The notes below the pieces were generated by a model. It was not told where the DNA came from, did no database searches, and worked only from the letters and a program-made list of their open reading frames with translations. Position numbers and translations under genes: made by a program. Shown here one piece after another: positions 20,639 through 39,933 of a DNA stretch of 42,599 nucleotides (positions are counted from its first letter, which is position 1; every line of letters starts with the position of its first letter). This stretch comes from Myxococcales bacterium. GTDB lineage: Bacteria; Myxococcota; Myxococcia; Myxococcales; Anaeromyxobacteraceae. The stretch spans positions 1 to 42,599 of the forward strand of contig JBBQEB010000012.1 of NCBI GenBank assembly GCA_038320275.1, in the 5' to 3' direction.

Positions 20639-21457
20639 TCAGGCGCTGCCGGTCGCCCCCTTCTGATCGCGCTTCACCATCACGGCCTTGAAGAAGTCCT
20701 TGTTCATCTTCCGGATGACCTCGAGCGAGACGTGCGCCGGGCACACGGCTTCGCACTCGCCGATGAGCGTGCAGTGGCCGAAGCCCTCCGCCGTGTTCTG
20801 CTGCACCATGGCGAGGGTGCGCTCGTAGCGCTCGGGCTGACCCTGCGGCAGCACGTTGAGGTGTGTCAGCTTGGCCCCGGTGAAGAGCGCGGCCGAGGCG
20901 TTGGGGCAGGCGGCGACGCACGCTGCGCAGCCGATGCACGCGGCAGCCTCCATCGCGCGATCGGCGGCCTCCTTGGACACCAGGATCGAGTTGGCCTCGG
21001 GCGCGCTGCCCGTGCGGGTGGAGATGAAGCCGCCCGACTGGATGATGCGGTCGAAGGCGGTCCGGTTGACCACCAGATCCTTCATGATGGGGAACGCCTT
21101 GGCCCGCCACGGCTCGAGGGTGAGCGAATCCCCGTCCTTGAAGTGGCGCATGTGGAGCTGGCACACCGTGCCGCCGTGCACCGGGCCGTGCGGCGAGCCG
21201 TTCACGAGGAAGCCGCACATCCCGCAGATGCCCTCGCGGCAGTCGGAGTCGAAGGCCACCGGCTCCTCGCCCTTGATGATGAGGTCCTGGTTGAGGACGT
21301 CCAGCATCTCGAGAAAGGACATGTGCTCGTTCGCGACCACCTGGTACCGGACGAACCGGCCGGTGTCCTCGGCGTTCCTCTGCCGCCACACGTCGAGGGT
21401 GAGCTTCATGTCGCCGTGGGCGGCCGCGCCGCCGTTCGAGTGTCCGTTCGCGCTCAC
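20639..21457 (-). CDS. sdhB: Succinate dehydrogenase/fumarate reductase iron-sulfur subunit
   Basis: GTG overlapping sdhA stop (alternative ATG 21409); [45 protein letters not shown]. Confidence 0.95.
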
Positions 21458-23364
21458 TTGTAGCTCCGGGTCGCTAGCTTGATGTTCTCGTACACCAGGG
21501 GCTCCTTGTGGAGCTCCGGCGTCTCGCCGCCCTTCCAGCCCCAGGCCGCCACGTACGCGTAGTCGGCGTCGTTGCGCTCGGCCTCGCCGTCGGCCGTCTG
21601 GTACTCCGTCCGGAAGTGCCCGCCGCAGGACTCGTTCCGCTGGAGCGCGTCGAAGCACATGAGCTGCGCCAGCTCGAAGAAGTCGCCGACGCGGTTCGCC
21701 TTCTCGAGCTCCTGGTTCAGGTCGTTGGAGGCGCCCAGCACCTTCACGTTCTTCCAGTACTCTTCCTGCAGCGTCGGGATCTTCGTGAGAGCGCGCTCCA
21801 GGCTCTCCTTGGAGCGCGCCATCCCGCACTCATCCCAGAGGATCGTGCCCAGTTCGCGCCAGTAGGAGTCCACCGTGCGCGTGCCCTTCGCGCTCAGCAG
21901 CTTGTCGAGGCGCGTCTTCACCTCGCGCTCGGCATCCTTGAAGGACGCGTGGTTGGTGTCGGACTTGGCGATCCCGCCCGAGGCGAGATAGTTGCCCACC
22001 GTGAGCGGCAGGATGAAGTAGCCGTCGGCGAGCCCCTGCATGAGCGCCGAAGCGCCGAGCCGGTTCGCGCCGTGGTCGGAGAAGTTCGCCTCACCCCCCA
22101 CGAACAGCCCGGGGATGTTGCTCATGAGGTCGTAGTCCACCCACAGTCCACCCATGGTGTAGTGGACCGCCGGGTAGATGCGCATCGGCACCTGGTACGG
22201 GTTCTCGCCGGTGATGCGCTCGTACATCTCGAAGAGGTTTCCGTACCGCTCGGCGATGACGTTCTGGCCGAGCCGCTTGATGGCGTCTGCGAAGTCGAGA
22301 TAAACGCCAAGCCCGCCGGGACCGACGCCGCGCCCCTCGTCACAGGCGTACTTCGCCTGCCGCGACGAGACGTCGCGCGGGGCGAGGTTGCCGTACGACG
22401 GGTAGACGCGCTCGAGGTAATAGTCGCGCTCGCCCTCGGGGATCTGGTCGGGGGCCCGGTGGTCGCCAGCCTTCTTCGGCACCCAGACCCGCCCGTCGTT
22501 GCGGAGTGACTCGGACATGAGCGTCAGCTTCGACTGGTAGTCGCCCGACTTCGGGATGCAGGTGGGGTGGATCTGCGTGTAGCAGGGGTTGGCGAAGTAC
22601 GCGCCCCGCCGGTGCGCCCGCCAGATGGCGGAGGCGTTGCAGCCCTTGGCATTGGTGGAGAGGTAGAAGACGTTCCCGTAGCCGCCGGTGGCGAGCACCA
22701 CCGCATCGCCGATGAACGACTCGAGCGCGCCGGTCTCGAGGTTGCGGGTGACGATGCCTCGCGCGCGCCCGTCGATGACGACGAGGTCGAGCATCTCGTG
22801 GCGAGCGAACATCTTCACCGTGCCCGCCGCCACCTGGTGCTCGAGGGCCTGGTAGGCGCCGAGGAGGAGCTGCTGGCCGGTCTGGCCCCGGGCGTAGAAG
22901 GTGCGGGAGACCTGCGCGCCTCCGAAGGACCGGTTCGCCAGCGTGCCGCCGTACTCTCGCCCGAAGGGAACGCCCTGGGCGGCGCACTGGTCGATGATGT
23001 CGACCGAAACCTCGGCCAGGCGGTGGACGTTGGCCTCGCGGGAGCGGAAGTCGCCGCCCTTGATGGTGTCGTAGAACAGGCGGTACACCGAGTCGCCGTC
23101 GTTCTGGTAGTTCTTGGCGGCGTTGATGCCGCCCTGCGCGGCGATGGAGTGCGCGCGGCGCGGGGAGTCCTGGTAGCAGAAGTTGAGGACGTTGTAGCCG
23201 AGCTCGCCCATGCTGGCGGCAGCCGCCCCGCCGGCGAGGCCCGTCCCCACCATGATGACCGTGTACTTCCTCTTGTTGGAGGGGTTCACGAGCTTCATGT
23301 GGTCCTTCCGCTCGGTCCACTTCTTCTCGAGCGGTCCAGCCGGGGTATTCGATTCGAGGGCCAT
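21454..23364 (-). CDS. sdhA: Succinate dehydrogenase/fumarate reductase flavoprotein subunit
   Basis: [21 protein letters not shown] (covalent FAD His), [40 protein letters not shown]. Confidence 0.97.
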
Positions 23365-23371
23365 GGCGCTC

Positions 23372-24073
23372 CTAGCCGTGAAGGACGCCCGTGAGGACTG
23401 CCACGGGGACGGAGATGTTGGCGAGCGCGATGAGCGTCGCGGCGAGCGCCGCGAACCGCTTCACGTTCGCCGTGTAGCGCGGGTGGGAGAGGCCGAGGGA
23501 GCCGAACATCGAGTACACCCCGTGCCAGAGGTGGAAGCCCAGGGCGACCATGGCGGCGATGTAGAGCAGCGCCGGGATGGGATGGGAGAAGCCGGTGACC
23601 ACGTTGTTGCCCGGGTCGAGCTCGACGTACCGCCCGGCGTGCGCGACCCCGACCGTGAGGTCGAGCACGTGATAGACGATGAAGAGCAGGATGAGCACGC
23701 CGGTGATGATCATCGTGCGCGAGGGAAGGGTCGCCTGGATGACCTCCTTGCGCTGGTAGGCGATGGGTCTGGCCTCCCGCTTCATGAACCAGAGCTGGAT
23801 GCCGGCGACGGCGTGCACCAGCGCGGCCGCGATGAGGACGGTCCGCGCCACCCACAGCAGTCCCTCGCTGGAGTGAAGCAGCTTGGCGTAGCGGTTGATG
23901 ACCTCCGAGCCCGCGTACACCTGCATGTTCCCCAGCAGATGGGCGACCACGTAAAGGAAGAGCACGATCCCGGAGAGCGCCATCAGCACCTTCTTGCCGA
24001 CGTTGCTCGCCCAAAGGAGTGAGAAGCGGGATGGGCCGGGACCGATGACCACGTCCTTCGTCGTGACGCTCAT
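23372..24073 (-). CDS. sdhC: Succinate dehydrogenase cytochrome b558 subunit (single 5-TM, dihaem-type anchor)
   Basis: [41 protein letters not shown]; four conserved His; GGAG SD. Confidence 0.92.
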
Positions 24074-24417
24074 GCGCGGAGCTCCATACCGTGTGGCGCC
24101 GTACTCTGGGTGCGACCCGGACGCCGTGGGACGCACACGGAACCACAAACGGAGGCGGGCGGGAAGGTCCCGCTACCGCCCCATTGGGTCTCTCGCCAAA
24201 GAGTGAAGAATTCCGCGGTGCGTCACCCGCTCCAGACGCCCGGACCGCGCTCACCGGTCGAGCACTCGGAGCCGACCGGTCGAAGCCACCACGGAACCGA
24301 TCGTCAGCTTCGGCGAGGAGGCGTCTTCGGGTCGCACGCGCGCCAGCCCCGGGGCCGCCGGCGAGCCCGCTCCCGGGCCGGTCGCGCCTCGTCCAGCCTC
24401 GACGTATACCTTTCGAC

Positions 24418-29401: not shown

Positions 29402-30442
29402 ATGAACGTCACGCCACTCCTCGGAACGCCGGATCGTGCGCGGGCGCGCCGCTTCCTCGCGTCGCAGGGCCTCCGGTTCGAGGAGCCGCTCGACGATCTG
29501 GTGGGCGCCTTCGCGCCCGGCGGCGACCTCGCCGGGGTGGGCGCGCGCGCCGGCGCGGTGCTGAAGATGATCGCTCTCGTCCCGGCGGAGCGCGACGGGA
29601 GCCTCCTCGGGACGATCGTGACCGCGCTCGTCGGGCGGGCGCTCACCGCGGGCGTGGAGGGGCTCTTCGTCTTCACGCGGCCCGAGCACGCACCCTCCTT
29701 CGAGATGCTCAACTTCGAGCTCCTCGCCGCGAGCGGACCGGCGGCCCTGCTCGAGTACGGCGGCGGCTTCGGACGGTGGCTGGCCTCGGCCCGGGCGGCG
29801 CTGGGGAAGCCGCCCCCGCTGCCGGGCCGGTCCGGAGCGGTGGTGGTGAATTGCAATCCGTTCACCCTCGGTCACCGCTACCTCGTCGCGTCGGCCGCGG
29901 CGCGGGTGGAGCGGCTGGTGGTCCTCCTGGTGGAGGAGGACCGCTCGGCGTTCCCCTTCGAGGTGCGCCTGAGGCTCGTCCGCCGAGGCACGGCCGACCT
30001 CCCCAACGTTCGCGTCCTCGCCACCGGCCCTTATGCAGTGAGCGCGGTGACCTTCCCGGCCTACTTCCTGCGCGCGGGGGAGCGGGCCGCGGAACTGCAG
30101 GGGGAGCTCGACGCGGCCCTCTTCGCGCGCCGCATCGCGCCGGGGCTCGGCCTGTGGGCGCGCTACGTCGGGGACGAGCCGTTCGACCCCACCACGCGCG
30201 CCTACAACGCCGTTCTCCGCCGGGTGCTGCCGCCCGGCGGGGTGGAGCTCGTGGAGGAGCACCGGCTGGCCGCGGCCGGCCAGCCCATCAGCGCCTCGCG
30301 AGTGCGGGAGCTCCTGGCGCGGGGCCCGCCCGACCGCGCCACCCTCGCGGCGCTCGTCCCGCCCACCACATTGGAGTATCTCCTGTCGGGCGAGGCGCGT
30401 CCGGTGCTGGAGCGCCTGCGCGAGGTGGAGGGGCGGCGATGA
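29402..30442 (+). CDS. citC: [Citrate (pro-3S)-lyase] ligase
   Basis: N-terminal GNAT-like region; VNCNPFTLGHRYL, EEDRSAFPF, SAVTFPAYFL, RYVGDEPF, ISASRVR. Confidence 0.92.
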   Translation: MNVTPLLGTPDRARARRFLASQGLRFEEPLDDLVGAFAPGGDLAGVGARAGAVLKMIALVPAERDGSLLGTIVTALVGRALTAGVEGLFVFTRPEHAPSFEMLNFELLAASGPAALLEYGGGFGRWLASARAALGKPPPLPGRSGAVVVNCNPFTLGHRYLVASAAARVERLVVLLVEEDRSAFPFEVRLRLVRRGTADLPNVRVLATGPYAVSAVTFPAYFLRAGERAAELQGELDAALFARRIAPGLGLWARYVGDEPFDPTTRAYNAVLRRVLPPGGVELVEEHRLAAAGQPISASRVRELLARGPPDRATLAALVPPTTLEYLLSGEARPVLERLREVEGRR

Positions 30443-30708
30443 AGATCGGCAAGAAGGCGCAGGCGGGGACGATGCAGTCGAGCGACCTCATGGTCTTCGT
30501 GGAGCCGGCGCCGGAGCTCACGGTGGAGATCGCTTCCACGGTGAAGGCGCAGTTCGAGGACCTCATCCGGGAGCGCATCGGAGAGGTCCTGGCGCGGAAC
30601 GGCGTCACCGCCGGGCGGGTGCGCGTCACCGACCGCGGCGCGCTCGACTACGCCATCGAAGCGCGGCTCGAGACGGCCCTGGCGCGCGCCGGCGGTGGGG
30701 AGGGGTGA
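30439..30708 (+). CDS. citD: Citrate lyase acyl carrier protein (gamma subunit)
   Basis: ATGA overlap; MKIGKKAQAGTMQSSD (prosthetic-group Ser), QF..LI, DRGALDYAIEARLETA. Confidence 0.93.
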   Translation: MKIGKKAQAGTMQSSDLMVFVEPAPELTVEIASTVKAQFEDLIRERIGEVLARNGVTAGRVRVTDRGALDYAIEARLETALARAGGGEG

Positions 30709-30709
30709 G

Positions 30710-31186
30710 ATGGAGGGCTTCTGGTACACCGAGGCGGAGGGCGGGCGCCGTTTCCTCGTCAAGATCGCGCCGGGCGAGAGCCTCCGTCGGCGCCTCGCCG
30801 ACTGGGCCGGCGCGGCCGGTGTGAAGCGGGCGGTGCTCGTGTCCGCGGTCGGCTCCCTGCGCGACCTCGAGTTCCGCGGGATTAAGACCGGCGCCAAGCT
30901 CCCGCTCACGCCCGCGCGCCTCCAGGTCCACAAGGTGGAAGGCCCGCTGGAGCTCCTGGCGCTGTCGGGCAACGTCATGCCGGGCGCGGAGGGCGCCCCC
31001 GACTGCCACTTGCACGTGATGGCCAGCCGCGCCTCGGGCGAGGTGGTGGGTGGGCACCTGTTCGACGGGACGGTCTTCGCCAACTGCGAGATCGTCCTCA
31101 CCGAGATCGTGGCCGAGGGGGTCTCGCGCCACACCTCCGCTACGGGCGGCGTGGAGACCATGTTCATCCCGGACCGCCAGCCATGA
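30710..31186 (+). CDS. PPC/DUF296-domain protein with His triad
   Basis: KIAPGESL, SAVGSL, GPLELLALSGN, HLHVMASRASGEVVGGHL, CEIVL; 1 nt after citD stop and ATGA-coupled to citE. Confidence 0.88.
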   Translation: MEGFWYTEAEGGRRFLVKIAPGESLRRRLADWAGAAGVKRAVLVSAVGSLRDLEFRGIKTGAKLPLTPARLQVHKVEGPLELLALSGNVMPGAEGAPDCHLHVMASRASGEVVGGHLFDGTVFANCEIVLTEIVAEGVSRHTSATGGVETMFIPDRQP

Positions 31187-32097
31187 CCGCGGCCCGGCTC
31201 CGCAGGTCGCTCCTCTACGTGCCGGGCAACATGCCCTCCATGCTGCAGAACATCCCGGTCTTCCGCGCCGACTCCATCATCATCGACCTGGAGGATGCGG
31301 TGCCGGTCACGGAGAAGGACGCTGCGCGCAGGCTCGTGCGCCGCTTTCTCGACCGCCATCCGCAGCGCGACAAGGAGATCCTGGTCCGCATCAACGCGCT
31401 CGACACCGCCTGGGGCCACGACGATCTGCGCGAGGTGCTGCCGGCCCTCCCGGACGGCATCCGCCTCCCCAAGGCGGACAGCCCCGAGATCGTGGAGCGG
31501 CTCGACACGCTCCTCACGGAGCACGAGGAGGGGCTGGGGATCCCGGTGGGGCGGTTCTGCGTCCTCCCGTCCATCGAGAGCGCAGCGGGCGTGATCGCCT
31601 CCATCGACATCGCGCGGGCCTCGAGCCGTCTCATCGGCCTCGCCTTCGGGGCGGAGGACTACACGGCCAGCATGGAGATCGAGCGGTCGAAGACCGGCGA
31701 GGAGCTCCTGAACGCCCGCGCCCGGATCGTCTGGGCGGCCAAGGCGGCGGGCATCCAGGCCATCGACACCATCTACGCCGACGTGGCGGACATGGAAGGC
31801 TTCCGCCGCGAAACGGAGCTCGTGAAGGCCCTCGGCTACACCGGCAAGTCGCTCGTGAACCCGCGCCAGATCGAGATCGTGCACGAGGTGTTCGCGCCGA
31901 AGGAGGAGGAGGTCGCCTGGGCGCTCCAGGTGGTGGACGCCATCCAGCGCGCCCGCGCCATGGGCACCGGGGTCATCGCGCTCCGCGGCAAGATGGTGGA
32001 CGCACCGGTCGTGAAGCGCGCGCTGCGCACGCTCCGCACCGCGCACGCGCAGGGGCTCCTCGACACGGCGCCCGACGAGGAGGCCATCCTTGGCTAG
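31183..32097 (+). CDS. citE: Citrate lyase beta subunit (citryl-ACP lyase)
   Basis: RRSLLYVPGN, IIDLEDAV, VRINA, RLPKA, IESAAG, FGAEDY, GKSLVNPRQI, GKMVDAPV. Confidence 0.93.
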   Translation: MTAARLRRSLLYVPGNMPSMLQNIPVFRADSIIIDLEDAVPVTEKDAARRLVRRFLDRHPQRDKEILVRINALDTAWGHDDLREVLPALPDGIRLPKADSPEIVERLDTLLTEHEEGLGIPVGRFCVLPSIESAAGVIASIDIARASSRLIGLAFGAEDYTASMEIERSKTGEELLNARARIVWAAKAAGIQAIDTIYADVADMEGFRRETELVKALGYTGKSLVNPRQIEIVHEVFAPKEEEVAWALQVVDAIQRARAMGTGVIALRGKMVDAPVVKRALRTLRTAHAQGLLDTAPDEEAILG

Positions 32098-33628
32098 GAA
32101 CAGCCTGGGGAGGGAGCTCCCCGACGCCTGGAACGGCCGGCCCGTGCTCCCGTACGCGGGCCCCTTCGCGCGCCGCCCCACCGGCGACCGCGCCAGCTCA
32201 CCCCTCCGCCGCGTGGATCCCGGCGACGAGAAGCTGCTCCGCGACCTGCAGGAGGCGGTGGAGGCCTCGGGCCTGCGCGATGGCGGCACCATCTCCACGC
32301 ACCACCACCTTAGGAACGGCGACGACCTCCTCAATCACGTGGTCCGCGTGCTCGACCTGGTGGGGTTGAAGGACATCACCATCGCCTCGAGCTCGATCCA
32401 CCCCGTGCATGCGGAGCTCGCCGACGCGATCCGGTCCGGCGTCGTGTCGCGGATCGAGTGCGGCGTGAACGGGCTCGTGGGCGAGCTCGTCACGAAGGGC
32501 GAGCTCCGCTGCCCGATCACCGTCCGATCCCACGGCGGCCGCGCCCGCTCGCTCCTCACCGGCGAGGTGCCGGTGGACGTCGCTTTCATCGCGGCGCCCT
32601 GCTGCGACGTCTACGGCAACATGAACGGGCTGCACGGCCCCTCCGCCTTCGGAAGCCTGGGCTACGCCTTCACGGACGCGCAGGTCGCCCGCACGGTGGT
32701 GGCGGTGACCGACAACCTCGTGCCCTATCCGGCAACGCCGGTGAGCATCCCGCAGCACCTGGTGGACTTCGTGGTGCCGGTGCAGCGGCTCGGGGATCCG
32801 GGAAAGATCGTCTCCACCACCACGCGCGTGACCACCGATCCGGTGGGGCTGCAGATCGCGAGGTACGCGGCGCAGGTGATCGAGGCCTCCGGGCTCCTCG
32901 TGGACGGCTTCTCCTTCCAGACCGGGAGCGGCGGCATCTCGCTCGCCGTGGCCGAGAACGTCCGCAACCTCATGCGCCGGGGGAAGGTCCAAGGGAGCTT
33001 CGGCTGCGGTGGCATCACCGGGGCGTTCGTGGACATGCTGGAGGAGGGGCTGTTCCGGTCGCTCTTCGACGTACAGTGCTTCGATCTGCGGGCGGTGGAG
33101 TCGATCCGGAAGAACGCCGCCCACCTCGAGATGAGCGCCGACCTCTACGCGAACCCCTTCAACGCCGGCCCGGTGGTGAACCGGCTCGATTGCGTGATCC
33201 TGGGCGCCACCGAGGTGGACGTGAACTTCAACGTCAACGCGAACACCGAGTCGAACGGTCTCCTCCTGCACAACACCGGCGGCCACAGCGACACGGCGGC
33301 GGGCGCCAAGCTCGCCATCATCGTGGCGCCCTCCATGCGGGGACGGCTCCCCATCGTCCGGGATGAGGTGACGACCATCACCACGCCGGGCGAGACCGTG
33401 GACGTGATCGTCACGGAGCGCGGCATCGCCGTGAACGAGCGCCACCCCGAGCTGGCCGCGGAATTGCGGCGCAGGAAAGCGCCGGTGAAGGACGTCCGCG
33501 AGCTGCAGCGCGAGATCACCGCGGTGACCGGTACGCCGCGCGCCATCCGCCGGACGGACGAGGTGGTGGCGCTCATCGAGTACCGGGACGGGACGATCAT
33601 CGATGCCGTCCGGCGCGTCGAGAGCTGA
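32090..33628 (+). CDS. citF: Citrate lyase alpha subunit (citrate:acetyl-ACP transferase)
   Basis: TTG start with GAGGAGG SD; ISTHHHLRNGD, RSHGGRAR, GSLGY, FQTGSGG, GGITG, DVQCFD, LGATEVD, GGHSDTA, TTPGETVD, IEYRDG. Confidence 0.96.
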   Translation: MARNSLGRELPDAWNGRPVLPYAGPFARRPTGDRASSPLRRVDPGDEKLLRDLQEAVEASGLRDGGTISTHHHLRNGDDLLNHVVRVLDLVGLKDITIASSSIHPVHAELADAIRSGVVSRIECGVNGLVGELVTKGELRCPITVRSHGGRARSLLTGEVPVDVAFIAAPCCDVYGNMNGLHGPSAFGSLGYAFTDAQVARTVVAVTDNLVPYPATPVSIPQHLVDFVVPVQRLGDPGKIVSTTTRVTTDPVGLQIARYAAQVIEASGLLVDGFSFQTGSGGISLAVAENVRNLMRRGKVQGSFGCGGITGAFVDMLEEGLFRSLFDVQCFDLRAVESIRKNAAHLEMSADLYANPFNAGPVVNRLDCVILGATEVDVNFNVNANTESNGLLLHNTGGHSDTAAGAKLAIIVAPSMRGRLPIVRDEVTTITTPGETVDVIVTERGIAVNERHPELAAELRRRKAPVKDVRELQREITAVTGTPRAIRRTDEVVALIEYRDGTIIDAVRRVES

Positions 33629-34166
33629 GCTGCTGGCCGCCCGCGACGCGCGGCAGGCGGCGATCGACCGGGCCGTGGCAAGGCTGCGCGCGGGCGGGGA
33701 GGGCGAGCTCGGCGCCGTGCAGCCCGCGGCGCCCGGGTCATCGATCGTCGCCATGTCGCTCGCGATCCCGGGCGAGGAGAAGACGCCGCCCGGCGCGTTC
33801 GAGCTCTTCGCCTGGGCGTCCCGGCGGGTGCGCCTGGCGCTGCCGGGGGGCGCGGTGATCCACGCTGGGCGCGACGCGCTGGGGCCCTTCGAGCTCTTCG
33901 CGGGGGCGGCGACGCCGGTCCGCGCCAAGCTCGCCTGCGTCGCGGTGGAGAGCGCGGATGCCGCGGCCCGGCTCGCCGACCTCGACGTGCTGGCGCCCGA
34001 TGGGCGGCCTCTCGACCGCGCTGCCCTGGGGCTCCCGCCCCGCGCCTGCCTGCTCTGCGGGGAGCCCGCGCGCGAGTGCATCGGAGCTCGTCGGCACGGG
34101 ACCGCGGAGCTGGCCAGCGCCGCGCGCGAGCTCCTGGCAGGCTTCGAGGGCTTCGCCCGCGCGTGA
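33603..34166 (+). CDS. citX: Apo-citrate lyase phosphoribosyl-dephospho-CoA transferase
   Basis: ELLAARDARQ, SLAIPGEEK, KLACVAVE, RLADLDV, PRACLLCGEPARECIGARRH. Confidence 0.88.
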   Translation: MPSGASRAELLAARDARQAAIDRAVARLRAGGEGELGAVQPAAPGSSIVAMSLAIPGEEKTPPGAFELFAWASRRVRLALPGGAVIHAGRDALGPFELFAGAATPVRAKLACVAVESADAAARLADLDVLAPDGRPLDRAALGLPPRACLLCGEPARECIGARRHGTAELASAARELLAGFEGFARA

Positions 34167-34218
34167 GCTCCACGACGGCAGGCGACCCCACCCTCACCAG
34201 ACCCCCTGGAGGACGCGC

Positions 34219-35124
34219 GTGACCCGCGCTGCGCAGGACGGACCCCTTCTGTGCCTCGCCGGATGCCTGGCGCGCGGGCTCGTCGAGGAGCTCCACCTCA
34301 CCCCCAAGCCCGGGCTCGTGGACAGGCTGGACGCAGGCTCTCACCCGGACCTCACGCTCGAGCTCATGGAACGCTCGATCGAGCTCCTGCGCGCCGCGTG
34401 GAACGGGATGACGCAGGCGCTGTGCGAGGGAGCCGGGCTCGATGCGCTGGTCGCGCTCGGCCGCGCCGCCGAGGCTCGCATGGACCGCGAGCTCGGCACC
34501 AACACGCACCGCGGAGCGCTCTTCCTGGGCGGCCTCCTCCTCGGCGCGAGGCACCGGGCGGGGGTGGACGACGAGGGCCCGCTGCGCGAGGCGCTGGCCG
34601 CGCTCGCGGGCGAGCGCTTCGGGCATCCCGCCAGGACGGAGCGCTCCGCGCCCGCCTCTTCGGATGCGCAGGGCAGACCTGCTCCGGCCCGCGCGCTGGG
34701 CGAGGGGACGCGGAGCGCGGTCTGGCCCGCCACGCACGGCGCTGCCGCGCGCGCTCGGCACCGGGTGGGCGGCATCGTGCGCGAGGCCCTGGATGGCTTC
34801 CCCTCGCTCTTCCAGGCGGCGCTCCCGGCCTGGCGCGCCGAGCGGGCCAGGGGCGGTGACGAGCGGCGCGCCGCGTTCGCCGCCCTCGCCGCGCTCATGG
34901 GCACCGTGGAGGACACCACCTCCCTGCACCGCTGCGGGGCCCCTGGTCTCGCCCGGCTCCGGCGGGACGGCGCCGAGCTCGCCCGCATCCTGGAGGACGG
35001 CGGCGCGCCGGAGCCGTTCCTGACCGAGATGAACGACCTCTACCGCGAGCTCGGACTCACCATGGGAGGCGTCGCGGATCTCCTCGGGCTCACCCTGGGG
35101 TGGGTGGCGTACCGCGGCGCGTGA
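34219..35124 (+). CDS. citG: Triphosphoribosyl-dephospho-CoA synthase, with a 33-aa insertion
   Basis: GGAGGA SD before GTG; ELHLTPKPGLVD, GSHPDL, NTHRGALF, THG, GGIVREA..GFP, EDTTSLHRCG, TMGGVADLL. Confidence 0.92.
   Translation: MTRAAQDGPLLCLAGCLARGLVEELHLTPKPGLVDRLDAGSHPDLTLELMERSIELLRAAWNGMTQALCEGAGLDALVALGRAAEARMDRELGTNTHRGALFLGGLLLGARHRAGVDDEGPLREALAALAGERFGHPARTERSAPASSDAQGRPAPARALGEGTRSAVWPATHGAAARARHRVGGIVREALDGFPSLFQAALPAWRAERARGGDERRAAFAALAALMGTVEDTTSLHRCGAPGLARLRRDGAELARILEDGGAPEPFLTEMNDLYRELGLTMGGVADLLGLTLGWVAYRGA
34627..34732. mobile_element. MITE/REP-like palindromic in-frame insertion in citG
   Basis: CCCGCCA direct repeats at 34627-34633 and 34726-34732 (99 nt apart); inverted repeat GCGCTCCGCG (34641-34650) / CGCGGAGCGC (34709-34718). 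Confidence 0.65.
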
Positions 35125-35757
35125 TCAGGCGTCGCCCCGATCCCAGCGGTACTCCATGCGCCGCGCCGCGGCGAGCGCGACCTCCTCGTGGGACAGCCGC
35201 TGCACCAGGTGGAGCGCCATGTCGGTGCCGGCGGAGATGCCGGCGCTCGTCACGACGCGCCCGTCATCGACCCAGCGCGCCCGCCGGTTCCAGCGGACGT
35301 CGCTCGGGCACACCGAGACCACCCAGTCGAAGGCGCGCCGGTTGGTGGTGGCCTCCCGGCCGGACAGGAGCCCGGCCGCGCCCAGCAGCGCCGCGCCCGT
35401 GCACACGGAGGCCGTCAGCTCGGCCTCCGCGGAACGGGCGCGGAGGAACTCGAGCAGCGCCCCGTTCCGGACCTCGAGGCGCGTGCCGACCCCTCCCGGC
35501 ACGAGGAGCACGTCGAGGCGAGGGCAGGAGCCGAGGTCGAAGTCGGGCACCACCCGCGGCCCTCCGCGCATCGGCACCTCCCCGCGGCTCTCGGCGACGG
35601 CGATCACCCTGAAGAGGGGCGTCCCCGGGGGAGGTCCGCCGGCAGCCGCGGCCGGCTCTCCTGGAGCCTCCGCGACGGCGAACACCTCCACCGGCCCGAA
35701 CGCGTCCAGCGGCTCGAAGCCCGGAAAGAGGACGAGACCCACGGTGCGTACGTTCAT
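35125..35757 (-). CDS. DJ-1/PfpI-family protein (InhA/isonitrile hydratase-like subgroup)
   Basis: LFPGFEPLDAFGP, DVLLVPGG, SVCTGA (nucleophile Cys), ATT, RWVDDG, TSAGISAGTDM. Confidence 0.9.
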   Translation of the reverse strand: MNVRTVGLVLFPGFEPLDAFGPVEVFAVAEAPGEPAAAAGGPPPGTPLFRVIAVAESRGEVPMRGGPRVVPDFDLGSCPRLDVLLVPGGVGTRLEVRNGALLEFLRARSAEAELTASVCTGAALLGAAGLLSGREATTNRRAFDWVVSVCPSDVRWNRRARWVDDGRVVTSAGISAGTDMALHLVQRLSHEEVALAAARRMEYRWDRGDA

Positions 35758-35894
35758 GCCCTCTGCGTAACGCGCCGCGGCTCACGGGGCACGAGCCCGC
35801 CCGGCGGCACGCCCCGTCACCGATCGCTTGTGGCGGACCCCGGGTGGAGTGGGCCATGCTCTCCAAGCACACCCCAGCACGACGAGGACGCGCC

Positions 35895-37610
35895 ATGAGA
35901 TCGACCGAGACCTTCCGCCGCGCGCGCGACTTCCTGCTCGCCCACCGCGAGGACTACGACACGGCCTACCGCGACTTCCGCTGGCCCGCCCTCGACAGGT
36001 TCAACTGGGCGCTGGACTGGTTCGACGTCCATGCCGAGGGCAACCGGCGGACGGCCCTGCACCTCGTGGAGGAGGACGGCTCCGAGGTGAAGATCTCCTA
36101 CGCGGAGCTCGCCGAGCGGTCGAACCAGGTGGCGGTCTTCCTGCGGCGGCGAGGCGTCGAGCGCGGCCAGCGCATTCTCATGATGCTCGACAACTCTCCG
36201 CCCATCTGGGAGGTCATGCTGGGCGCCATGAAGCTGGGGGCGGTGGTGATCCCGGCGACCTCGCTCCTCACCCCGGACGACCTGCGGGATCGGCTCGAGC
36301 GGGGGGGCGTGCGCCACGTGGTGACCGACTCCGCGGGCGCGCAGAAGCTGGGCGCCCTGGGGGGCTCGTACACGAGGACCGTGGTGGGCGAGCCGGTCGC
36401 AGGCTGGACGCCCTACGCGCAGGTCTACGAGATGCCCAGCGCCTTCCTCTCCAAGTCGGAGACGCACGCGAACGACCCGGTGCTCCTCTACTTCACCTCG
36501 GGCACGACCGCCCAACCCAAGCTCGTGATGCACACGCAGACGAGCTACCCCATCGGCCACCTCTCGACGATGTACTGGATCGGGCTGCGCGAAGGCGACG
36601 TGCACATGAACATCTCGTCGCCGGGCTGGGCCAAGCACGCGTGGTCCAACTTCTTCGCGCCCTTCAACGCCGGCGCGACCGTCTTCGTGCACAACTACGC
36701 GCGCTTCCAGGCGCAGCGGACGCTGCGGATCCTCGCCGAGCACGAGATCACCACGCTTTGCGCGCCCCCCACGGTCTGGCGGTTTCTCATCCTGGAGGAC
36801 CTCGCGAAACATCCGGTGAAGCTCCGGGAGGCCCTGTCGGCCGGCGAGCCGCTCAACCCCGAGGTCATCGAACGGGTGCAGCAGGCCTGGGGGGTGACCA
36901 TCCGCGACGGCTACGGACAGACGGAGACCACCGCGCAGATCGGCAACACGCCGGGCCAGCCGCTGAAGCCCGGTTCCATGGGGAGGCCGCTGCCCGGCTA
37001 CCGGATCGCCCTCCTCGACGCCGAGGGGCGCGAGGCGGACGAGGGCGAGATCTCCCTGGCGCTCGATCCCCGGCCCGCCGGGCTCATGAAGGGCTACGCC
37101 GGCGACCCGGACCTGAACGACTTCACCACGCGCGGGGGCCACTACCGGACGGGAGACGTCGCCCGCCGCGATGCGGACGGCTACATCACGTACGTGGGGC
37201 GGTCCGACGACGTGTTCAAGAGCTCGGACTACCGCATCAGCCCCTTCGAGCTGGAGAGCGCGCTCATCGAGCACGAGGCCGTGGCGGAGGCGGCCGTGGT
37301 GCCGAGCCCCGATCCGCTGCGGGGGCTGGTCCCGAAGGCCTTCGTCATCCTTCGGCCCGGGCAAGAGCCCTCCCGCGAGCTCGCGCTCGAGCTCTTCCGG
37401 TTCGTGCGCGGCCGGCTCGCGCCCTACAAGCGGATCCGGCGCATCGAGTTCTCGGAGCTGCCCAAGACCATCTCGGGCAAGATCCGGCGCGTCCAGCTCC
37501 GCGCCATCGAAGGAGAAAGGCCGGATCCGACCCGGCGCCGCCCGGCCGAGTTCTGGCAGGACGACTTCCCGGAGCTCAAGGACCCGGCTCGAGGCTCTCC
37601 GGCAGAATAG
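35895..37610 (+). CDS. AMP-forming short/medium-chain acyl-CoA synthetase
   Basis: GAGG SD; FNWALDWFD, YFTSGTTAQPK, SAGEPLNP, DGYGQTET, YRTGD, GRSDDVFK, LPKTISGKIRR. Confidence 0.93.
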   Translation: MRSTETFRRARDFLLAHREDYDTAYRDFRWPALDRFNWALDWFDVHAEGNRRTALHLVEEDGSEVKISYAELAERSNQVAVFLRRRGVERGQRILMMLDNSPPIWEVMLGAMKLGAVVIPATSLLTPDDLRDRLERGGVRHVVTDSAGAQKLGALGGSYTRTVVGEPVAGWTPYAQVYEMPSAFLSKSETHANDPVLLYFTSGTTAQPKLVMHTQTSYPIGHLSTMYWIGLREGDVHMNISSPGWAKHAWSNFFAPFNAGATVFVHNYARFQAQRTLRILAEHEITTLCAPPTVWRFLILEDLAKHPVKLREALSAGEPLNPEVIERVQQAWGVTIRDGYGQTETTAQIGNTPGQPLKPGSMGRPLPGYRIALLDAEGREADEGEISLALDPRPAGLMKGYAGDPDLNDFTTRGGHYRTGDVARRDADGYITYVGRSDDVFKSSDYRISPFELESALIEHEAVAEAAVVPSPDPLRGLVPKAFVILRPGQEPSRELALELFRFVRGRLAPYKRIRRIEFSELPKTISGKIRRVQLRAIEGERPDPTRRRPAEFWQDDFPELKDPARGSPAE

Positions 37611-37860: not shown

Positions 37861-39933
37861 ATGGCGAGCCCTCGCACCACCCGTACCTTCTGCATCACCG
37901 GGGCCGACGGTTCCGGGAAGACAGCGCTCGTCGAGGCCTTGCTCCGCGTCGCGGACGCCCGGCGGGCAAGTCCCGGCGGCTCCACCTCCCGCCTCGATGC
38001 CGAGCCGGAGGAGAAGAAGCGCAACTTCACCCTCTCCCTTCATCCGGAGACCTTCTGGGAAGCCGGCCGCATCTTCAACGTCATCGACACGCCTGGCTTC
38101 GCGGCGTTCCTGGCGGAGGTCGATTGGGCCCTGCGCGTCACCGATGGCGCGCTGCTCGTCGTCTCGGCAGCCACCGGCGCGCACAACCACGCCGAGCGGC
38201 ACTTCGATCTGGTGGCGGCTTCCGGACTTCCTGCGCTCGGCGTGATCGGGCGGGTCGACCACGAGCGGGCCGACTTCCCGAGCGCGGTGGCCTCCGTCGA
38301 GAGCTCCCTCAAGGTGAAGCCCATTCCCCTCCAGCTGCCCATCGGGTCCGGGGCCGGGCTGCGCGGGCTGGTGGACGTGCTCGCCATGAAGGCCCACGTC
38401 GCCGGAAAAGCCTTCGGCACGTGGACGGAGGAGGAGGTCCCTTCCGAGCTGCGGGCCATGGCGGAGGCCGCTCGCACGGCCGCGGTCGAGGCGGCGGCGG
38501 AGTCGGACGACGAGCTGCTCGGCAAGTATCTGGAAGGCACTCCGCTCACGGAGGACGAGATCTTCCGGGGGCTGGCGAAGGGCGCTCGAGGGGGTCAGTT
38601 CCTGCCGATCGCGCTGGCCGCGCCCAAGCTGGGCGTCGGGGTCCGGGAGCTGCTGGAGCTCGTGACGAGGCTCCTGCCCGGGCCCGAGGAGCGAACGCGG
38701 ACGGGCAAGGATCTGCACGGGACCGAGGTGGAGGTGGAGCCGCTCGCGAGCGGGCCTCTCGTCGCGCAGGTGTTCCGCACCACCATCGACCACTTCGCTG
38801 GACGCGTCGATTACGCCCGCATCTTCCGGGGCACGCTGCGCCCCGACGCGGTGCTCATGAACCCGCGGACGCGCAGCGAGGAGCGCATCGCCCACTTCTT
38901 CGAGACGGACGGAGCCCAGAACGACGAGGTGAAGGAGGCGGGCCCGGGCGAGCTGGTGGTGCTCATGAAGCTGAAGGACGCGCACACCGGCGACACCCTC
39001 TGCGACAGCGGGTCGCCGGTGCAGCTCCCGCCGTTCCCCCCGCCCAACCGCCCGGTCGCCTTCGCGGTGCACACAAGGAACGCCGACGACAAGGCGGCGG
39101 CCGCCCTCCACAAGCTCATCGAGGAGGACCCGTCGCTCGAGCTGACGCGCTCGCCGGAGACCGGCGAGATGCTGCTCAAGGGCATGGGGCAGGCGCACAT
39201 CGAGGTCACCGTGGAGCGCGTGAAGCGCAAGCACGGCGTCGAGATGACGCTCGGACCGCCCACCCCCGCCTATCTCGAGACGGTGACGGTGGCCGCCAAG
39301 GCGCAGGGGAAATTCAAGCGTCAGACCGGCGGGCACGGTCAGTACGGCGACGCCCACGTCGAGATCGTCCCGGCGCCGCGCGGCGCGGGCTTCACGTTCG
39401 AGGACGCCATCGTGGGCGGCGTCGTGCCACGGCAATTCATCCCCTCGGTGGAGAAGGGCATCCGCAACGCGCTGCACGCGGGGCCACTCGCGGGCTACCC
39501 GGTGGTGGACTTCACGGCGCGGCTCGTCTTCGGCAGCTACCACGACGTCGACTCGTCCGACATGGCCTTCCAGGTGGCGGGGTCGATGGCGTTCAAGAAG
39601 GCCGTGTTGGAAGCGCGGCCCATCCTGCTCGAGCCGGTCATGAGGCTCGAGGTGCGGGTGCCGGAGGAGTACGTGGGGGCGGTCCTCGGAGACCTGAACA
39701 GCCGCCGCGCCAAGGTGCAGGGCATGGAGCCGGTCGCGCGCGGCGTGCTCGTGCGCGCCCTCTGCCCGCATGCGGAGGCCACCAGCTACGACGCCGAGCT
39801 GCGCTCGCTCACGCAGGGCGTCGGTTACTTCACCATGGAGCAATCGCACTACGACCCGGTGCCCCCCCCGATCGCGCAGAAGATCGTGGAGCGGCGGCGC
39901 GCCGAAGGGAAGGTGAAGGGAGTCGAGGAGTAG
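37861..39933 (+). CDS. Elongation factor G paralog (EF-G2-like), divergent GTPase motifs
   Basis: GADGSGKT, DTPGF, EEDPSL, GMGQAHIE, KRQTGGHGQYG, GGVVPRQFIPSVEKG, GSYHDVDSSDMAF, LLEPVM, LRSLTQG. Confidence 0.92.
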   Translation: MASPRTTRTFCITGADGSGKTALVEALLRVADARRASPGGSTSRLDAEPEEKKRNFTLSLHPETFWEAGRIFNVIDTPGFAAFLAEVDWALRVTDGALLVVSAATGAHNHAERHFDLVAASGLPALGVIGRVDHERADFPSAVASVESSLKVKPIPLQLPIGSGAGLRGLVDVLAMKAHVAGKAFGTWTEEEVPSELRAMAEAARTAAVEAAAESDDELLGKYLEGTPLTEDEIFRGLAKGARGGQFLPIALAAPKLGVGVRELLELVTRLLPGPEERTRTGKDLHGTEVEVEPLASGPLVAQVFRTTIDHFAGRVDYARIFRGTLRPDAVLMNPRTRSEERIAHFFETDGAQNDEVKEAGPGELVVLMKLKDAHTGDTLCDSGSPVQLPPFPPPNRPVAFAVHTRNADDKAAAALHKLIEEDPSLELTRSPETGEMLLKGMGQAHIEVTVERVKRKHGVEMTLGPPTPAYLETVTVAAKAQGKFKRQTGGHGQYGDAHVEIVPAPRGAGFTFEDAIVGGVVPRQFIPSVEKGIRNALHAGPLAGYPVVDFTARLVFGSYHDVDSSDMAFQVAGSMAFKKAVLEARPILLEPVMRLEVRVPEEYVGAVLGDLNSRRAKVQGMEPVARGVLVRALCPHAEATSYDAELRSLTQGVGYFTMEQSHYDPVPPPIAQKIVERRRAEGKVKGVEE

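Follow-up and report, generated by a model that had tools for sequence, protein, structure and literature searches.

The window carries a citrate lyase operon with an additional gene

The DNA considered here, which we call the window, is a stretch of 42,599 nucleotides from a Myxococcales bacterium of the family Anaeromyxobacteraceae. It contains a citrate lyase operon in which a gene for a PPC/DUF296 protein lies between citD and citE (Table 1). A preliminary description of this DNA had noted the placement, and we confirm it: the frame opens with an ATG after a 1-nt gap from the end of citD (30708), encodes 158 residues, and its stop codon overlaps the ATG of citE at 31183. Its GC content at third codon positions (0.94) is similar to that of citD, citE and citF, and codon bias, homologues and fold together rule out a spurious or shadow reading frame. 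The gene is the sole PF03479 match in the window's genome.

Table 1. Genes and features of the citrate lyase operon, in positions of the window.
Feature	Position	Strand	Evidence and remarks
citC, citrate lyase ligase (acyl carrier acetylation)	29402..30442	+	PF08218 189 bits; TIGR00124 225 bits, under cut-off
citD, acyl carrier protein	30439..30708	+	TIGR01608 80.8 bits, above cut-off
PPC/DUF296 gene, 158 aa	30710..31186	+	PF03479 85 bits; model pLDDT 87, PPC fold
PPC signature loop, residues 58-70	30881..30919	+	candidate binding loop; I58, G61, A62, P65, R70 invariant 98/98
His100, His102, His116, putative metal triad	31007..31057	+	intact in window copy; dispensable in one lineage
citE, citryl-ACP lyase (beta subunit), proposed partner	31183..32097	+	TIGR01588 339 bits, under cut-off; PF03328 214 bits
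CitE residues 104-116, acidic stretch, candidate docking site	31492..31530	+	putative surface helix; conservation specific to the clade with the PPC gene
citF, citrate:acetyl-ACP transferase (alpha subunit)	32090..33628	+	TIGR01584 601 bits, above cut-off
citX, holo-ACP synthase	33603..34166	+	PF03802 98 bits
citG, triphosphoribosyl-dephospho-CoA synthase	34264..35124	+	PF01874 174 bits from residue 103 of ORF 33958-35124; coordinates start at the domain match, start codon not fixed

About 5 kb upstream of citC, genes for a succinate dehydrogenase/fumarate reductase flavoprotein and a cytochrome b occupy the reverse strand (21454-24148). On the other side of the operon (35125-37610), a DJ-1/PfpI gene on the reverse strand converges with citG and is followed by an AMP-binding acyl-CoA synthetase gene on the forward strand; neither is among the frequent neighbours of homologous operons. 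Beyond them, positions 37861-39933 (+) encode a 690-residue protein with altered GTPase motifs which, judging by eye, we take to resemble a divergent elongation factor G paralogue.

Fold and conserved residues of the PPC protein

The protein matches PF03479 (PCC) at 85.2 bits (cut-off 25) over positions 1-115 of the 117 in the profile, and Pfam gives no other family, in agreement with the earlier statement that it has neither an AT-hook nor a helix-turn-helix. An NCBIfam search gave no match, and a search of the ESM Atlas returned generic PCC clusters only. Its nearest named relatives are from Anaeromyxobacteraceae, and database names for the subfamily read "PPC domain-containing DNA-binding protein". 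The HxH...GGH pattern previously reported is present as His100 and His102 (in CHLHV) and His116 (in GGH).

An AlphaFold model of the protein (pLDDT 87) superimposes on the PPC structure 2dt4 with Z 19.0 and rmsd 2.8 over 143 aligned residues (Foldseek E 1.5e-10). The stated kinship of DUF296 with acetolactate decarboxylase (ALDC) and PTD012/C11orf54 is also seen, although it is weaker than that to PPC proteins: 4bt2 gives Z 8.7 and rmsd 3.7 over 115 residues, and 1xcr gives Z 5.0 and rmsd 4.6 over 130. Profile comparison with one ALDC sequence had a probability of 3.6%, too weak for residue mapping; of the candidate equivalents of the second-shell catalytic Arg and Glu, R56, matched by manual alignment only to an arginine just ahead of this region in ALDC, is kept in 56 of 97 copies, and E81 in 89 of 97.

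Twenty positions are invariant across all 98 subfamily sequences, triad-less members included, and no histidine of the triad is among them. They include a loop (I58, G61, A62, P65, R70) that is poorly modelled (pLDDT 58 at residues 61-70), the pair C126-E127, and the C-terminal residues E132, G137, R140, S143 and G147. Of 56 members, 55 have a net charge of zero or below.

The gene is co-inherited with one clade of citrate lyases

Five of 60 related genomes have a close homologue (60-68% identity), each time in the order citC-citD-PPC-citE-citF, while six other genomes among the 60 give weak PPC matches, none adjoining cit genes. A scan of GTDB genomes with three motifs, two of them His-containing patterns, found 109 relatives, and 80 loci were listed from the genomes of 78 records. 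The PPC gene is directly 5' of citE in every one of the 80 loci listed and directly 3' of citD in 79; locus L076 keeps PPC-citE-F-X-G without citC or citD upstream. The hosts span six phyla (Myxococcota, Thermodesulfobacteriota, Deferribacterota, Pseudomonadota, Acidobacteriota and Eisenbacteria). The five relatives and the uniform placement in the listed loci rule out a one-off insertion, so that the association, which the preliminary description had allowed might be a singular event, proves recurrent.

For the converse test, genomes were searched with CitF alone and the operons were then inspected for the PPC gene. CitF was found in 13/301 Myxococcota genomes, 6/301 genomes of the Geomonas phylum, 5/401 genomes of the Propionivibrio order and 25/133 Holophagales genomes. 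Within the CitF clade of the window, 29 of 30 operons from this search carry the PPC gene. In the exception, G008 (L113:7343-9293), the 5' part of citC abuts residue 69 of citF, and citD, PPC and citE are absent, which is a deletion or misassembly. Operons of other CitF clades gave no PPC match in the stretches fetched; two of these were cut by contig ends, and a search of both genomes likewise gave no PPC match. On a FastTree phylogeny of 64 selected CitF sequences, presence and absence of the PPC gene require a single change, separating 44 from 20 rows with local support 100. As a control, 80 metagenomic loci of the nearest sister group of PPC proteins were examined; none has cit genes nearby, and many are short stretches. 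Thus, we conclude that the PPC gene is strictly co-inherited with one citrate lyase clade, and that a functional link to citrate lyase is strongly supported.

A published operon fits this picture. The available text of PMC2996986 lists seven locus tags and six named genes for the cit cluster of G. bemidjiensis, a count that fits an unnamed seventh gene, and proposes a role for the cluster in a reverse TCA cycle. That citD, citE and citF are contiguous in classical operons, as the preliminary description held, is seen in L111, L134-L136, L242-L244, L246 and L247.

Several operons deserve separate mention. In G1177 (L244, L267), a classical citrate lyase operon and a PPC-type operon occur in one genome. 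One record has two operon copies with identical PPC proteins (L090 and L093). In the set L021, L024 and L029, a second record has two different copies, one of them protein-identical to a copy from another bin, a pattern that points to carry-over during binning. Four Myxococcota operons (L114:6696-10729, L115:1574-9000, L116:403-3364 and L117:6751-9533) combine a fused CitD-CitE of ∼400 residues with citF; they belong to a separate CitF clade, have no citC, citX or citG match nearby, and may encode enzymes that act on a different acid. Two of them adjoin an isocitrate/isopropylmalate dehydrogenase, one of these also aconitase and PrpD. As for the sister PPC group (L162-L241), its triad is intact, and in 19-21 of the 80 loci it lies beside an aldehyde:ferredoxin oxidoreductase and a ThiS/MoaD protein; other neighbours are a glycerate kinase-like MOFRL protein with a ThDP enzyme, or ilvC with ilvD. 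These sister proteins are better candidates than the cit subfamily for true 2-hydroxy/keto acid enzymes.

The metal triad is lost in Holophagales while the gene is kept

The first 81 loci comprised 75 with an intact triad (HHH), five in which His116 is Gln (HHQ) and one in which the triad is wholly changed. Since two of the three scan motifs contain histidines, the order of the changed case, Holophagales, was searched separately. The PPC gene is present in 20 of 133 Holophagales genomes, always as citD-PPC-citE. Nineteen of these copies are intact, and all nineteen lack both His100 and His116, with His102 kept in six; position 100 holds Q, E or R, and position 116 holds R in 15, Q in three and A in one. 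The twentieth copy (G1190) has indels across the entire operon. Over 97 copies the tally is 73 HHH, five HHQ and 19 lost.

In a quick tree, the 19 triad-less copies branch as a single clade (support 99) from within the triad-intact copies, apart from the five HHQ copies, which make up another clade (support 98). Two further triad-less subfamily members, P0136 and P0144, fall outside the Holophagales clade on long branches and come without genomic context.

By simple pairwise counts on related genomes, median dN/dS in Holophagales is 0.27 for the PPC gene, 0.18 for citD and 0.14 for citE, and PPC dN relative to citE is 2.0, against 1.1, 1.5 and 2.3 in three triad-intact groups. Purifying selection and the integrity of 19 of 20 copies rule out a decaying pseudogene. 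Outside Holophagales, 73 of 78 copies, that of the window among them, keep all three histidines, which indicates selection on the metal site in most lineages. We conclude that retention of the PPC gene is independent of the zinc triad. Lineage-wide loss of the triad with the gene kept makes a protein that acts on a partner more probable than a separate zinc enzyme.

Oxaloacetate disposal and the decarboxylase reading

The preliminary description read the protein as a zinc-dependent oxaloacetate decarboxylase, pointing to its fold and to the absence of oad, citM, mae and mdh genes from the window. Both fold relatives, ALDC and C11orf54, are beta-keto acid decarboxylases with a His3-Zn site in the available text of PMC12337341, and decarboxylase chemistry of this fold appears also in that of PMC12435205. 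The statement about the window stands for the contig, on which searches of the whole genome found no match for OadA-like proteins, malic enzyme, MDH or CitMHS, but not for the genome, which elsewhere encodes MDH (in icd-mdh-sucC, C293), malic enzyme (C27) and CitMHS-family transporters, together with citrate synthase (C3). That this 91%-complete genome has only a full-length pyruvate carboxylase (C106) and no OadB match speaks for the decarboxylase reading.

Across genomes, the expected complementarity is not seen. In 50 genomes, a subset of those behind the 80 loci listed, OadA scores above cut-off in only five, which favours a decarboxylase; yet an OadA-like protein above 620 bits, a label that may cover both decarboxylating and carboxylating proteins, is present in 19, of which 18 are triad-intact; one of these 18, G352, has adjacent oadA and oadB. 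OadB-family genes occur in 21 of 69 genomes, and an MDH/LDH-family gene in 49 of 50. Profiling of the PPC gene against oad, proposed earlier as a check, thus gave no exclusion: co-occurrence in 18 of 47 triad-intact genomes means that the gene is not simply a substitute where oad is missing. We conclude that it is neither required for oxaloacetate disposal nor exclusive with oad.

Among operon neighbours, monomeric isocitrate dehydrogenase (∼12 loci) and a CitMHS transporter (8 loci) recur. No oad or malic-enzyme cluster is present in the 90 neighbour clusters that occur most often, which were identified by reading their sequences and, for a subset, in Pfam. Decarboxylation of oxaloacetate would oppose the reverse TCA cycle to which the dehydrogenase and the proposal in the available text of PMC2996986 point.

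As a conserved role, then, zinc-dependent decarboxylation does not survive: the triad was lost in Holophagales while the gene stayed under selection, His116 was independently replaced by Gln in five copies, the R56 match to ALDC is kept in little more than half of the copies, and OadA-like proteins co-occur with intact triads. A narrower version would confine catalysis to triad-intact lineages, possibly in a CitE-bound form, with catalysis lost and binding kept in Holophagales. The 73 intact triads, including that of the window, suit it, as does the stand-alone OadA/5S-like protein found in 18 of 20 triad-less genomes. We nevertheless regard even this version as unlikely.

Less likely readings: an acetyl-CitD deacetylase or a DNA-binding regulator

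The preliminary description also offered the acetyl-CitD deacetylase (EC 3.1.2.16) as an alternative, and this, or another factor acting on the carrier so as to switch the lyase off, seems to us a little less likely again. Such an enzyme reportedly occurs in Rhodopseudomonas gelatinosa and R. palustris. The purified deacetylase is reportedly ∼14 kDa in native form with subunits of ∼7 kDa, a size that does not fit a chain of 158 residues. Adjacency to citD in 79 of the 80 listed loci speaks for the proposal, although L076 separates the two genes; and an off switch would be useful, given the citrate synthase in the genome and the lack of a conserved regulator flanking PPC-type operons among the frequent neighbours. 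Hydrolysis by a zinc-bound water would require the triad that Holophagales lack. The invariant Cys126 and Glu127 (97/97) could be enlisted instead, but a Cys-Glu at the same place in unrelated PPC proteins such as AF0104 makes the pair non-specific. Weak esterase activity is described for the related C11orf54 in the available text of PMC12337341.

A transcriptional regulator of the cit operon, which the database names suggest, is very unlikely: one precedent was found in LmiA of E. coli O157, a stand-alone DUF296 protein whose promoter binding is reported from EMSA, ChIP and footprinting in the available text of PMC7667037, so that a DNA-binding module may not be required, and no conserved regulator flanks the operon; but Pfam detects no DNA-binding domain in the window protein, net charge is almost never positive, and a mid-operon position abutting two enzyme genes, together with a CitE fusion, better suits a stoichiometric partner.

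CitE as the candidate partner

The PPC-CitE fusion was the only one found among 7999 longer-protein candidates scored. It is a single cluster of two metagenomic sequences that differ at one residue, and its junction lacks the conserved PPC C-terminal motif, as a frameshift would give; the junction may therefore stem from one.

Clade-specific conserved positions of CitE (36 versus 13 sequences) cluster at 105-118 and 254-265, and in an acidic stretch they include E105, L111, T112, E113 and E116. Conservation over 104-116 is 0.905 against a CitE mean of 0.813, with a net charge of -4 to -8 over 101-119; six other 13-residue windows are better conserved, and the sequences used for comparison diverge more.

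Prediction of a complex of three PPC chains with CitE, the sole partner scored, reached 0.53 against 0.21 for the best of three controls, which lends weak support to binding. The runs agree in at least 84% of contacts and the partner has a pLDDT of at least 89, with no interface given. In calibration, 116 of 157 solved complexes and 2 of 215 mismatches passed the mark; scores of 0.60 or less account for 18 of the 157 solved complexes and both passing mismatches, so that a result in the 0.53 band is more often wrong than right unless there is a good prior. An analysis of mutual information between proteins, over 56 rows, showed no partner signal that could be interpreted.

A proposed accessory subunit of citrate lyase

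Our preferred reading makes the PPC protein an accessory subunit of citrate lyase. Probably trimeric, it would dock on CitE and act there either as a scaffold or as a regulator that senses a ligand; we judge the prospects of this reading to be about even. A structural subunit had been the third option of the preliminary description, and it fits the evidence best, although physical binding to CitE is the part that the complex prediction supports weakly. Fixed placement 5' of citE, co-inheritance and retention after loss of the triad argue for it, and the PPC-CitE fusion, the clade-specific acidic stretch of CitE and the L076 operon, where PPC stays with citE but not with citD, point indirectly to CitE. 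Since other citrate lyase clades do without the gene, it is not needed for the basic chemistry. Against a subunit role stand the selection on the metal site in most lineages, the intact triad of the window copy, and the possibility that the stand-alone OadA-like proteins of triad-less genomes replace a lost decarboxylase activity.

By analogy with prokaryotic PPC proteins, which the available text of PMC4209074 describes as trimeric, with plant PPC domains mediating protein-protein binding, the protein would form the usual trimer. We infer that its basic conserved loop 58-70, with R13 and R140, might face the acidic stretch 104-116 of CitE. So docked, it could serve as a scaffold, or as a regulator that takes up an anionic metabolite in its former active-site pocket. 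In most lineages the ligand would be held by zinc; in Holophagales, the arginine found in place of His116 in 15 of 19 copies could substitute for the metal cation. Such control might prevent futile cycling in cells that have both citrate lyase and citrate synthase.

More tentatively, and with less expectation that it holds in full, we propose a citrate lyase of four components. In it, a trimer of the PPC protein would cap CitE and use a repurposed zinc pocket to sense a carboxylate metabolite, and the family would be caught in an ongoing transition from enzyme to pseudoenzyme. In the boldest version of this proposal, triad-intact forms would also decarboxylate oxaloacetate handed to them directly from CitE. 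Either version, if true, would supply a specific metabolic function for a subfamily of bacterial DUF296 proteins that currently carries the label DNA-binding.

The PPC-bearing citrate lyase is a real, conserved variant, and apparently an undescribed one. Literature searches for the DUF296/PPC domain with citrate lyase, citD or citE, which left most subscription journals uncovered, found no description. The main text of PMC2996986 names Gbem_3862 alone of Gbem_3858-3862 and does not contain "DUF296"; three of its 15 supplementary files, outside our coverage, could name the gene. Widespread in bacteria and represented by solved structures, DUF296 proteins are as a routine annotated as DNA-binding, for which the literature searched offers little direct evidence. 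With one fixed metabolic context, natural active-site knock-outs and cultured hosts (Geomonas, Citrifermentans, Anaeromyxobacter oryzae and Propionivibrio dicarboxylicus), the function of this subfamily is directly testable. The gene also sets apart a clade of citrate lyases from anaerobes, for which two questions arise: whether flux runs towards citrate fermentation or reverse TCA, and how futile cycling is controlled.

Comparison with known systems

All six genes of classical citrate lyase (citCDEFXG, EC 4.1.3.6) are present here in the usual order; the difference is that, throughout one CitF clade, a further gene, PPC, separates citD from citE. PPC-type operons have no conserved transporter, regulator or oad genes beside them, whereas the classical-type L134 has a 2-HCT transporter. 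In a betaproteobacterial genome (G839, L136:2558-10147), a classical cit operon is directly followed by genes for a genuine acetolactate decarboxylase and a ThDP acetolactate synthase-like protein.

The prokaryotic PPC/DUF296 structures (AF0104 2H6L, PH0802 2DT4, 2HX0, 3HTN and 3HWU) have the same fold (Z 15.5-19.0) and HxH...GGH in common with the window protein at 17-29% identity. Unlike other PPC proteins, the cit subfamily is tight (44-78% identity to the window copy); it has an invariant loop and a C-terminal motif peculiar to it, keeps to a fixed cit context and includes a branch without the triad. Acetolactate decarboxylase (PF03306) and C11orf54/BKGD (DUF1907) share the superfamily fold and His triad, and the part of ALDC that the window model covers is approximately its C-terminal half (4bt2 residues 101-253); in contrast to both, the window protein is a single small domain at 10-17% identity, with a triad that is dispensable in one lineage.

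LmiA, which consists of DUF296 only, is like the window protein in standing alone and having three histidines, a likeness by description in the available part of its report, where it is a promoter-binding activator from an island with ABC transporter genes. The PPC domain of plant AHL proteins, in the available descriptions, forms trimers and puts the same domain to protein-binding use; the window protein has no AT-hook, and its probable partner is a metabolic enzyme, whereas the partners of AHL proteins are transcription factors.
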